From: Octopus vulgaris | Lineage: Eukaryota | Length of the DNA: 64,000 bases | Direction of reading: 5' to 3' | Assembly: GCA_951406725.2 (NCBI GenBank) | Contig: OX597824.1 | Span: 43,958,001 to 44,022,000, forward strand | Part shown: positions 31,170 through 57,451 of the stretch, in pieces | How the letters are laid out: each line of letters opens with the position of its first letter | Numbering within the stretch: the stretch's first letter is position 1 | Translations under genes and position numbers: made by a program | The notes under the pieces: model-generated | Seen by the model: the letters and a program-made list of their open reading frames with translations, nothing else | Told to the model about the DNA's origin: nothing | Databases searched by the model: none

Positions 31170-33790
31170 GTATCCTTTAACTGCTTCTATACTTTGGTGG
31201 ATCATTTGACTGAATAATGATAACCTAATCAATTGTCTGACAATGGTTAAATTTGTGTTAGAATTTAAGAAAAAAAATGTTAACTACAATGAATTATGCA
31301 GTGTGAGAGAAAAGAAAACAGTATTTGACCATGACTAGTGTTATTTTCATTATCTTGGCAGTTACAAAAAACAAACTCTGCATGTGTTTCAGTCTTATTA
31401 TGACCTCATCAGAGAGACATAAAACTGATATTTCTGTTATTTATTCAAATGTAGAACATTTAGCATCAATCTTTTCTCTACCAAAATATACTGAGGGATC
31501 TTTAACTGGTTCCATTAACTTATCTTTGGGAAACGGATCTTAAATATGTATCAGTGTATAATTATGTGTATTAAATCTACTATATTACTACTATGTGTGT
31601 AAACTCTATTATATTACAGCTCTGTATATTGATCTTACAATATTGCTATGTATGCTGAGGCTACTATATCACTACTACATTTCTAGTGTACATTTCTAGT
31701 GTCCCAACTATAATTACTGCTATGTGTACTGAGCCTCCTACATTACTACTATGTATTGACCCTACTATATTAATGTTGTATGTATAATCTTTTTATATTA
31801 TTGCAATGTATTGATCCTCCTGTGCTATTCTAACATAACTGATATTTTACTATTCCTTTAATTAGATTAAAGGCAAAGTTTACTTTTATGGAACTCTAAA
31901 ATTGAAACCTTGATGAATATATATAATCCATTTCTCTATCATCTATGCCAATGGAGACTGGATGGGAATTAGAATATTAAAATCATTTTTTAAAAAGTGT
32001 TTTTCTCATTAACATCCAGTTTCCTACCATAGAATGGCTAAGATAGTTTTGAAAATGTAAAATTTACCTAGGGATTGTTGATTTGAAGTGCATGTGTGCA
32101 TGCGTGCATGCATGCTTGTGTGTAGTGAATGTGATAGAAGCAATGGTGACTGATGGTGGTGAAAATAAAAGCTTTTGCGATTTAGTTTTCAAACAGACAG
32201 ATAGACAATAAGACTGACTGACAAACATGCTAGCAGAAATTCACACATATATACGTATGTGTGTGTTTGAAATCAAAGCTAGGCAAATTTAGGCAAGTAG
32301 AATCACACACTTTGCTTCCAGGTACAACAAGTGAATGAATGTGTGAAAGGTAGTTGTTTGACTTGCTAAAACAAATAACACACTCTTAAAGAAGGGATGA
32401 CACTTGGCATAATGTACACTTGAATATACTTGTGTGAAAATAGAAAGAATAGTCACAGTTTAAAATACTTTGTCCATAGATCTACTGGCCAGAACTAAAT
32501 AACAATATATTGTTTTAATAGTTTAACATGTATTTTAGTATTTAATCAACATGGATTGAATGACTCTGCCGCCTCTGACATATCTATTCCATATGTACCA
32601 AAAGTTACATTGTGTATCCAAAAGTGAAATGAAATTGATGTTTATTTTACAGCCTTAGGTAATGTACTTTTACTAAGGTATCCATGTCAAGGTTTGACCT
32701 TCTGATCATCACTTCAGCAGCTTAACATGTTTTAGCTTAGTTGTAACGGGAGGACTTCTAACCTCTTCCCTTTCACACTAGTTATCACCATGGTGTGGCA
32801 TTTAAGGTATTCAATTAAATCCTTAGCTGGAACTATTTTCTTTGTTTTTTTTTAAGCCCTTGCATTAGTATTCCAACGTCCACATTTGTAAAAGACCTCA
32901 GGTTTCACATTTATTATTATTAGTATTAAGATGGAAGGCAGTGAGTTGGCTGAATTATTAGTGTGTCAGACAAAATACTTAGCAGCATTTCTCCTGATTT
33001 TTTTAATGTTCCGAGTTCAAACACTACGAAAGGCCTCTTTGTCTCTCATCCTTTAAGTAAAAATACTAATCAGGTACTTGGGTAGATATAATCAACTATC
33101 ATTCCTCCCACTAAAAACTGCTGGCCTTATGCTATAATTTGAAAATATCAGTATTAAAATGTAATATTTAGTAGTACATTACACCTACCTTTAATCTGAC
33201 CTCAATACCTCAACTATACATGTTAAAACATCAAAAGGATTGGAATGAGTTCTTCAGTACTCTGGTGTTAATCAAATAAATATCAGTAATATATTGGAAT
33301 CAATTTGAATTACTATTTCTCCTTTTCTTGTGTTGATGTAAAGAATAGTTTTGGCTTCACAACTATGGTTTTGGATTTAATCTCACTACTCTACACTTTG
33401 AAGTGTTTAAATATCTTCTTCCATAGCTGTAAGTCAACTAAAATCTTGTGAGTGTAATTCGTTTGGTAGAAATTTTATGGATGCCTGACAGGGGGACTGT
33501 ACCAGTTCTTAGATAGACAGTAGTTTTAACACATTGCCTTGATTAATACTAGCACCTGGTTATTGGATACTTTTAACAGAATCAGTTCTGTTGTCAGCAT
33601 TCAGCATTCTCTGGACTGAGAATAACTTCTCTGCTTACAATCCCAAAGGACCTGGAAAAGATCATGGGTATAGTCCTTCTAACTAACCTATGAAAAAAAA
33701 TGACTAAAGTTTTCTATTCATATCATAAATTGTTATTCACATTGCTCTGTTAAACCATCCTATTATTCTGCTCTCCTTAACTTATCTGTG
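31170..33790 (+). other. U12-type intron (MOCS3 intron 5, phase 2) with apparent GT-TG termini
   Basis: 5' GTATCCTTT; branch point TCCTTAAC at 33774-33781; in-frame junction at ...ctgTG|T TAT GAC; no AG between the branch point and the conserved YD codons. Confidence 0.82.
31550..31860. repeat. Degenerate ~28-30 bp minisatellite
   Basis: Variants of tgtgtattgatcctactatattactacta repeat about ten times. Confidence 0.65.
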
Positions 33791-33908
33791 TTATGACATT
33801 GTGATAGATGCCTCTGACAATGTTGCCACACGATACCTTGTTAATGATGCATGTGTCATCTCTGGCAAGCCTCTGGTTTCTGGTAGTGCTCTACGATTTG
33901 AAGGACAG
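33791..33908 (+). CDS. MOCS3: MOCS3 exon 6
   Basis: [39 protein letters not shown]|gtgagt; the 5' boundary is inferred from reading frame. Confidence 0.92.
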
Positions 33909-34280
33909 GTGAGTTTGTTCTTCAATCTATTTGAAGACACTTGTTTTATTTGCTTTAGGGTTTTTTTTTTTATTTGAGAAATTTGTATAAAATTTAAATT
34001 TGAAAAATGTGTCATGGCAACTTTGAAAAGGGGAAAATTTATCAAGAACACTAATAACATTAAATAATATACAGATAAAAAAATTAGAGCAAACGCAGGA
34101 ATATTTAGGATTCAATGTACTAAACAAGGTACAACAGAAACACATGAAAGATTAGGAAGGAATATTATAGACATGTTAATAATTACTGCAGAGTTAAATG
34201 CAAATAAAAGATTATAGGCATCAATACTCTAAATGACTTACTAATAAGTTGTAGTTATAACATTCTCAACTGAATGTTAA

Positions 34281-34793
34281 CCCCTTGACGCCAATATTAC
34301 CCGAAGCATGCAAGACACTGGGTTTTTTTTATCTAACGAGGCCACACAAAAACACAAGTGCCAACGAGCTCGCGTCTACTTACGTTCACCGTTACAATAA
34401 CATAGCATCGTACATTTATGTCTCCCGGTTTATGAAAACGAACTATATGAAGCTATTTATCATAATATGATATGCATGAGTTATTCTGCTCAAGTTAAAA
34501 AAATAGCTTGTGTGTGGTACAACTCAAAACACGGTATTATGCATGTAAAGTATCCACATGTCATTGGTCTACTGCTAGTCTCATGACTTGAACCTAAAAT
34601 AGCGAAGATAATGCACGGGGCTGAGAGCGCATGCACCTAAAGAGATAAAGTACACAATAGCAAACATAAACATACATCAACCACTAAAAAGTTTGTGATA
34701 GATGTAGGGCATCTCTATATCATATATTTACGTTAACCGTGGGTAGGCAAGCAAAAGTGTGATCGCATATTTGCATCAACCATTGTCAAGGGG
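34281..34793. mobile_element. piggyBac-like MITE
   Basis: TTAA|CCCCTTGAC ... GTCAAGGGG|TTAA. Confidence 0.85.
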
Positions 34794-55640: not shown

Positions 55641-55649
55641 TGTTTGCAG

Positions 55650-55749
55650 GAATACAAAACTTTTCTTGACCAACACTTGTCTCATGTCCTTATTGATGTT
55701 CGGCAACCTGTTGAATTAGAAATCTGTTCTCTGCCAAAGAAGGCCATCA
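55650..55749 (+). CDS. MOCS3: MOCS3 exon 11 (start of rhodanese domain)
   Basis: ttgcag|GAA...ATC A|gtatccttt; EYKTFLDQHLSHVLIDVRQPVELEICSLPKKAI. Confidence 0.93.
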
Positions 55750-57451
55750 GTATCCTTTATGAATTGCATTGAAAACTGTGACAGAATTATTTGGATTACT
55801 TTTGCAAATAGTCAAGAGCCACTGTTTTGGGAAATCTGTAAAACTTATAATTTCAAACAAAAATGTACAATTAATGTAGTTGAAAGAGAAGAAACCAGAT
55901 TTAATATCTACAATAAGTTAAAAACAAAAAGGTATGGTTTCCTAATAGAAAACAATAATCAACCTTTAGATGGATGAAAGAGTAATGTTCTTAGAGATAG
56001 AACGTTTTCAACTTTACATGGCTTTATATGAAAGCCTATAATTCTGCTGCTGTATATAAATGAAACAATCATTAACTCCACTATAGGTTATCAATTCAGT
56101 TATCAACATTGATGTCAATGACGAATGAGGGACAATAACTGCTACACTAAGTTAATGAAATACCCAACTGCACTATATTGCCACAATTTGCTGAATCAAG
56201 CTAATTGCAATACTTATTTCTAGATGGGAGTTGTTCATTGAAAATGTGTTGCCTGTAAATACAATGTATTAAAGGAACGAACCTCTATATGACAGCTCAT
56301 GTATTAAAAGTAGCTAATTTCTGTCATATCATATAACCTAAAACAAGGACATAGTTGTGTGTCTAAGTTACACACTGAATATAAGATTGAATAGTCATGG
56401 CTGGAATGCATTTGATCATAGGTTTGCTGAAACTGAATTGACCTGGAGCTAAACAACAACAACAGTGCTAGGATGTGAACTCAGCAGGATATTCATAACA
56501 GGCTTGGAGAAGGGTATCAAGATATGTAGAGCCCTTTCCAGACAGTTTGGAAAGAGAATATTCAAAGAAATTGTTATAATTCTGCTTTATAAGTGTGAAA
56601 TATGAACACTCACAAGGTCCACGGTCAAATCCTCCAATGTGTACTAGATGTGTACTCCAGATAATCAGTGGAACAAATGATATAAACATAAATTGTAGAA
56701 GAAACTTGAGTGTCTTCAACTATAGCCCCTGGGCCACCGAAAACCTTATGAGTTGATTTGGGAGATGTAAACTGAAAGGCATTTGTTATATACATACACA
56801 CACATATATAGGTGTATCCATGTCTTTGATATCGCTTACTAGTTGTAAAGAAGTATCACCATTGTACAAATGGTGTCCACAATTTCCAATCTTCCATGAG
56901 AACATGTCAGGCCATGAGGCAGTATTACCTTTCATGGAAACAAGTGAAGTTGACAAAAGGAAGGGCAACAGGCCATAGGAAACCTGCCTCATCCAATTCC
57001 CATGCAGGCATGGAAATGTGATGATCATAAATTGTCTCTAGTGTTAAATTTTGTTTTGAAATCTCAACACTATAAATAAATAGGTGGTTTACAATTTTAT
57101 ATTTTCTGTACAATTAATTATGAATTCATTTATATTGAATTCATCTTATGCAATTTGGTGCATTTGTGATGATTGAAAATCTACATAACAAATATGTAAA
57201 ATATTGTATACTTATAGATTTCAGATTCTCATTAAAAACTTTTAAATTTAGGTAATCACAGCTCTTATTCAATATAACAACTTAGTGAAAGTAACCATTA
57301 TCATTACTTCTAAATACTGGTTTTGGGATTTTTTTTTTAATATTTTGGTACTTTTAGTGTTGCAGTAATATTTAGTGTATACATTTATTGCAAGTGATTT
57401 TCTTCTGTACATGATTTTCAGTGGTGTGGAATTTTACTCCTTAACAGAAAG
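55750..57451 (+). other. U12-type GT-AG intron (MOCS3 intron 11, phase 1)
   Basis: 5' GTATCCTTT; branch point TCCTTAAC at 57438-57445; in-frame AG at 57450-57451 restoring N-I-P. Confidence 0.88.

Follow-up and report, generated by a model that had tools for sequence, protein, structure and literature searches.

Three U12-type introns, one of them with GT-TG ends, in the MOCS3/UBA4 gene of Octopus vulgaris

Genes with three U12-type introns, the minor class of introns, are on record: the survey of Sheth 2006 (PMC1557818) gives two in human and three in mouse, all of them SLC sodium/hydrogen exchangers, and considers it possible that splicing dynamics gain nothing from a second U12 intron. According to the same source the minor spliceosome can also handle introns with non-canonical ends, with lower efficiency, and its Table 2 contains GT-TG ends in 1 (mouse) of 66 non-canonical U12 introns. 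In Table S1 of Larue and Roy 2023 (PMC10639083) GT-TG accounts for 29 of 73,671 (0.039%) conserved animal minor introns. The present study concerns the MOCS3/UBA4 gene in a stretch of 64,000 nucleotides (nt) of Octopus vulgaris DNA (assembly GCA_951406725.2, contig OX597824.1, positions 43,958,001 to 44,022,000 of the forward strand), hereafter called the window, in which three introns carry minor-class signals and one of these is cut at TG. Enzymes of the MOCS3 family adenylate and sulfurate MOCS2A and URM1; molybdenum cofactor synthesis and URM1-dependent tRNA thiolation are both supplied by them.

The gene has been met in this context before. Zebrafish mocs3 has a minor intron of 101 nt (17:42829244-42829344) that responds in both rnpc3 mutants (Olthof 2024, PMC11347168 Table S6), and the human gene is listed as an intronless orphan retrogene (Ciomborowska 2013, PMC3548309 Table 1); that it has no introns had been stated in an earlier, sequence-only reading of the window. 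For UBA3, which is also of the E1 type, a minor intron that responds is listed in both human and mouse (PMC11347168 Table S6). Switching of subtype from AT-AC to GT-AG and conversion of U12 into U2 (major-class) introns have been described (Lin 2010, PMC2831892; Sheth 2006). Larue and Roy 2023 argue that minor-intron evolution is largely neutral and include cases of enrichment among molluscs (PMC10639083). PMC3584512 reports that donor and branch point are bound jointly by U11/U12, reviews the rate-limiting model of minor introns and gives U12 introns as almost absent from genes of biosynthetic pathways. The kind of case described here is already known, since three-U12 genes, the zebrafish mocs3 minor intron and the human MOCS3 retrogene are on record. 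A literature search, with online intron databases, where these octopus introns may already be listed, outside its scope, returned no paper on MOCS3 minor introns, none on U12 introns of plant CNX5 (At5g55130) and none that ties minor introns to Urm1 tRNA thiolation.

The MOCS3/UBA4 gene and its minor-class signals

The gene, which combines a ThiF and a rhodanese domain, extends over 22446..57672 on the + strand and has 12 coding exons. Exon 12 matched MOCS3 from Octopus bimaculoides and from Argonauta hians, and these proteins then served to place exons 1-6 (22446-22541, 26792-26933, 28247-28339, 29499-29619, 31095-31169 and 33791-33908) and exons 7-12 (36600-36708, 40877-40939, 45113-45273, 49233-49280, 55650-55749 and 57452-57672), all on the + strand. 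When joined they give 448 codons and one stop. The product is identical to the O. sinensis RefSeq MOCS3 (P0216) at 448 of 448 residues, and aligns without gaps to the O. bimaculoides (433/448 identical) and Argonauta (368/448) proteins. This bears out the intron phases 2, 1 and 1 and the open frame of 448 residues proposed from the sequence. In protein P0002 Pfam recognized ThiF at residues 67-301 and Rhodanese at 341-440, and the same families were matched by window exons 6 and 12. The motifs that we take to be diagnostic of MOCS3/UBA4 (GxGGLG, NLxRQ, DxxDN, two CxxC and the rhodanese Cys loop) are found at P0002 residues 93, 125, 182, 226, 301 and 406, and none of them is among the 15 differences between P0002 and the window model. 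All 10 matches of a genome search with P0002 fell inside the window, so that neither a further copy nor a retrocopy came to light, and the window carries the sole MOCS3/UBA4 gene found in the 2.8-Gb octopus genome.

Introns 5, 8 and 11 have the signals of the minor class. Intron 5 (31170..33790, + strand, 2621 nt) is in phase 2, splits the codon of His176 and has GT-TG ends. Its U12 donor GTATCCTT (31170..31177, + strand) can pair over 7 nt with the 5' end of the U11 small nuclear RNA (snRNA) encoded in this genome, and its branch point TCCTTAAC is located at 33774..33781 on the same strand, with the first branch A 12 nt before the intron end. Intron 8 (40940..45112, + strand, 4173 nt, phase 1, in Ser273) and intron 11 (55750..57451, + strand, 1702 nt, phase 1, in Asn376) are of the GT-AG form, with the branch points GCCTTAAC at 45094-45101 and TCCTTAAC at 57438-57445, both on the + strand. 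The intron 8 junction was taken from identity to proteins P0216, P0002 and P0003, and that of intron 11 likewise from protein identity. An in-frame AG at 45105-45106, which precedes the acceptor of intron 8 by 6 nt, was rejected as it would add two residues that are absent from the proteins of relatives; it could give an isoform longer by these two residues.

U12 class was judged by the number of consensus letters matched. Against GTATCCTT (consensus RTATCCTT) the donors of introns 5, 8 and 11 matched at 8 of 8 letters, whereas the remaining eight introns matched at 3-5; against TCCTTAAC the best branch points scored 8, 7 and 8 of 8, compared with 4-6 in the other introns. The U12 donors and the CCTTAAC branch points that had been noticed in these three introns were thus confirmed by comparison with the rest of the gene. 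The + strand of the window contains CCTTAAC three times, every copy ahead of acceptor 5, 8 or 11, and GTATCCTT four times, three of which are at the exon ends of these introns. Under a dinucleotide model the chance of such a donor, given a GT, is 3e-4, and that of such a branch point in a 15-position window is 9e-4. The distance from the first branch A to the intron end is 12, 14 and 9 nt for introns 5, 8 and 11, respectively. The absence of a pyrimidine tract, claimed for all three introns, was found for introns 8 and 11 in the stretch that separates the branch point from the acceptor; in intron 5 the last 20 nt are 82% pyrimidine, the branch point being counted in, with a short pyrimidine-rich spacer. 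In O. bimaculoides 401 of 114,266 introns are minor (PMC11347168 Table S4). At that rate (0.35%) the binomial probability of at least three minor introns among 11 is 7e-6.

Genes for both U12 snRNA (125 bits) and U11 snRNA (94 bits) are present in the genome. The 5' end of U11 pairs with donors 5, 8 and 11 across 7, 6 and 7 nt, and the best computed pairing of the U12 snRNA is at the branch point in introns 5 and 8 and in an overlapping upstream register in intron 11. Retention of intron 5, 8 or 11 was computed to give a stop at residue 188, 297 or 382, in each case ahead of the rhodanese cysteine motif at 406. With three U12-type introns, a single-copy gene and both snRNA genes at hand, the suggestion that this gene depends on the minor spliceosome remains likely.

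The GT-TG end of intron 5

The exon joint 31169>33791, and with it the GT..TG cut, was found in contigs of all three RNA-type runs searched (X8, X12 and X3), which come from three studies and bear two organism labels. The joint had no ambiguous letters and 75 nt on its short side, and it was the sole joint listed. The runs carry the label 'RNA?' and their contigs cover the junction of intron 5 among the three; they were treated as transcripts since they also join exons 4-5 and 6-7, with loose ends. Word shares in the run search were high over intron 11, a signal given no weight as to retention. The junction predicted from the letters was thus recovered as such, and the acceptor position had been given correctly, although the earlier reading did not mention that the intron ends in TG instead of AG. 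An unspliced X1 contig over 32842-33904 contains the TG and has no differences from the window. The X18 contig, which carries a further organism label and spans 33659-34120, also keeps the TG and differs at 33692, 33699, 33958 and 33960 only, outside the splice signals. The His at 176 in the O. sinensis, O. bimaculoides and Argonauta proteins is consistent with the same cut.

No AG is present between 33710 and 33805, around the intron 5 acceptor, and among alternative frame-keeping pairs of donor and acceptor no GT-AG pair was found within 30 nt. Other AG acceptors were considered, five downstream in exon 6 and one upstream; those tested led to early stops or to a deletion of 32 residues. The latter is seen in P0004, a public model of O. 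vulgaris that takes an in-frame AG within exon 6 (33885..33886, + strand) as its acceptor and so lacks 32 residues, the DxxDN motif among them. A second model, P0001, omits exons 3-5 and, judged from the window, would resume at the residue that follows the AG at 33806-7. Together with P0040, a protein model of the oyster Saccostrea echinata discussed below, these models depart from the gene precisely where the intron 5 acceptor lies, which may be a sign of annotation pipelines that avoid a non-AG end. At this acceptor the two public octopus protein models (P0001 and P0004) are in error.

In X3 the transcript contig has a length of 5001 nt, with exon 5 at 502-576; if it is a single transcript, the 3' untranslated region would extend about 3.6 kb beyond 57672.

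Intron positions in other eukaryotes and further elements of the window

Metagenome contigs were scanned with an exon 7 motif, which gave 33 MOCS3 loci, of which some intronless ones may be transcripts. Near-duplicates among them are L005/L006/L007/L017, L010/L020/L025, L013/L026 and L018/L019/L031. At position 5 (residue 176, phase 2) an intron was present in 8 of the 30 loci covered on both sides and absent from 22. In L005, L006 and L017, members of one close group, it is an AT-AC U12 intron with donor ATATCCTT and branch point TCCTTTAC. In L008 it is a U12 intron with donor GTATCCTG, branch point CCTTGAC and an AT end (GT-AT), and in L009, L013, L026 and L036 it is a U2 GT-AG intron. Nine loci have an intron at position 8 (residue 273, phase 1). 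The donor is of U12 type in L008, L009, L015 and L030, of which only L009 and L015 also showed the acceptor and branch point, and the intron is U2 in L011, L013, L024, L026 and L036. In the L005 group this intron is replaced by a U2 one located some six codons downstream. At position 11 (residue 376, phase 1) seven loci (L006, L007, L013, L015, L016, L024 and L026) have an intron, all with U2 donors.

A quick, unfinished tree was made with 41 of 215 proteins and 14 of the 33 loci, with 27 of 52 forks open. L008 is from a teleost (support 100), with fish proteins agreeing at up to 123 of 129 residues, L011 and L024 are from Mortierellaceae, and L036 is nearest to Umbelopsis; these fungi are among the carriers of U2 introns. 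L009 and L015 group weakly with animals, and L030, L013, L016 and the AT-AC group are without secure placement. One of 120 aligned proteins, P0040 of S. echinata, has an insert of eight residues at position 5 that possibly corresponds to the tail of the octopus intron read in frame, as judged by the same branch point spacing and an AT end. Taken together, the alignments suggest that fungi share all three positions and that positions 5 and 8 are also U12 in other lineages. Position 5 would then occur in four states: AT-AC U12, GT-AT U12, U2 and the octopus GT-TG.

Several other elements are present in the window. On the - strand at 37843-38784, within intron 7, is a degraded fragment that has no introns and contains a C2 domain (Pfam E-value 4e-13) and half a WW domain, the latter under the cut-off; it resembles a retrocopy of a SMURF/NEDD4-type ligase. 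Its part at 37843-38191 is matched, with about 20 differences, by transcript contigs that stem from a related locus. A broken reverse-transcriptase retroelement (RVT_1, E-value 3e-12) lies upstream of MOCS3 on the - strand (15853-17628), and a second piece similar to it is found in intron 1 (23410-24420). Remnants of mariner-like transposases are located in intron 6 (35100-36010) and intron 8 (42030-42800, matching Pfam Transposase_1), and an integrase-like remnant (rve, E-value 1e-6, under the curated cut-off) in intron 7 (38840-39950).

Possible explanations and comparison with described systems

We consider it likely that the octopus gene has kept three old introns with minor-class signals, the first of them cut at TG, that the minor spliceosome removes all three, and that they are not a purpose-built switch. 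Dependence of MOCS3 on the minor spliceosome is very likely. The U11/U12 particle would bind donor and branch point together, so that the acceptor would be set by its distance from the branch point. With no AG in reach, the cut in intron 5, itself shown by the spliced contigs, would therefore fall 12 nt past the branch A, at TG, which keeps the terminal G and alters the base at -2 alone. Since the gene is single and retention of any of these introns truncates the product, full-length enzyme would need three minor-spliceosome events per transcript. The intron positions probably predate the split between animals and fungi. Position 5 is likely to have drifted among AT-AC, GT-AT, GT-TG and U2 forms, and mammals would have lost every MOCS3 intron through retrogene replacement. 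As for ancestry at all three points, the case is made in part: the positions appear old and 5 and 8 are U12 elsewhere, but position 11 is U2 in all seven other loci that have an intron there.

Several observations weigh against this explanation. Position 11 is U12 in none of the seven other loci and solely in octopus among the loci seen, so that its U12 ancestry follows from the usual U12-to-U2 direction of change alone, and even for that direction one case of a U2-to-U12 change is recorded (PMC2831892). The junctions of the metagenome loci were placed by protein alignment alone, and junctions 8 and 11 of the octopus gene are supported through protein identity and not by reads. The AT-AC group (L005/L006/L007/L017) has no placement in the quick tree. 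Furthermore, about 45% of expressed minor introns in model species are given as not responding when the minor spliceosome is inhibited (PMC11347168).

It could instead be that selection has made these three introns, and the weak GT-TG one in particular, into a rate-limiting layer by which MOCS3 output, and so molybdenum cofactor supply and tRNA thiolation, is matched to minor-spliceosome activity. In keeping with this, the end of position 5 is non-AG in octopus (TG), in the teleost contig (AT) and possibly in S. echinata (P0040, seen in translation only). The TG is retained in X18 under another organism label, the unspliced X1 contig spans the acceptor, non-canonical pairs are reported to be spliced less efficiently (PMC1557818), and the rate-limiting model has been reviewed (PMC3584512). 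However, position 5 is intronless in 22 of the 30 covered loci (some perhaps transcripts) and U2 in four, mammals manage without any MOCS3 intron, and X12 and X3 show spliced contigs exclusively, contig depth being no gauge of retention. Responsive introns of XDH, AOX1, URM1, CTU2 and MOCS2 were also absent among the rows of PMC11347168 Table S6 examined. We therefore regard a selected layer as unlikely, loss or conversion of the introns in many lineages being a better fit for a kept relic than for a control layer. A related idea, to which we give rather little credence, sees in intron 5 an ancient minor intron that has retained a non-canonical acceptor across separate animal lineages (octopus with TG, a teleost and perhaps oysters with AT, and an unplaced eukaryote with AT-AC), because a deliberately poor acceptor throttles the single enzyme behind both molybdenum cofactor synthesis and tRNA thiolation. 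If it were true, mammals would have escaped by retrogene replacement, and one position would hold the whole series from AT-AC through GT-N to U2.

It seems very improbable that the major spliceosome in fact removes any of the three introns, as a hybrid or U12-like intron, or that intron 11 was recently converted to U12. Such a history would agree with the branch A of intron 11 lying just 9 nt from the end, with the U2 introns at position 11 elsewhere and with the pyrimidine-rich tail of intron 5. Yet all three donors match the U12 consensus in full and have a base other than G at +5, the branch points almost equal their consensus, and a TG acceptor is, by general knowledge, a poor substrate for U2 splicing. 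As for the TG itself being an assembly error or a private allele, with intron 5 in truth GT-AG, nothing was found in its favour; it was given almost no weight and is refuted by the two independent contigs, X1 without a single difference and X18 with its four.

With these introns a biosynthetic gene joins the short list of those with three minor introns. It contributes a transcript-verified intron of the GT-TG subtype, which makes up about 1 in 2,500 conserved animal minor introns. We regard this intron and the four states of position 5 as the most interesting part of the finding, the latter offering a natural series for testing U12 acceptor choice and subtype switching. The case also points to a blind spot, in that mammalian retrogenes fall out of human-anchored minor-intron catalogues; human MOCS3 is missing from the corresponding orthology tables because it is intronless. 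The view that such introns are invisible to human-centred lists was right in that respect, but the zebrafish mocs3 minor intron had already been catalogued (PMC11347168). It is predicted that defects in molybdenum cofactor synthesis and tRNA thiolation could add to the phenotypes of zebrafish minor-spliceosome mutants and, by way of MOCS3 introns, not to those in humans.

Compared with the SLC genes, the octopus gene likewise has three U12 introns among U2 introns, clustered above chance, but it encodes a sulfur-relay enzyme and one of its introns is GT-TG. With the known GT-TG U12 introns it shares the U12 donor and branch point, the TG end and an exact cut backed by transcripts; it differs in being from a gene and a phylum that are new within the reach of the searches, and in having a position that is also AT-AC, GT-AT and U2 GT-AG in other eukaryotes. 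The zebrafish mocs3 minor intron belongs to the same gene and the same class; the table, which covers responsive introns only, names one intron of 101 nt. The human retrogene encodes the same enzyme but is intronless. Finally, position 5 resembles the described path in its AT-AC to GT-AG type of switching and in conversion to U2, whereas it differs in having four states, two of which are non-canonical GT forms, and in that none of the loci seen has a U12 intron with canonical GT-AG ends there.

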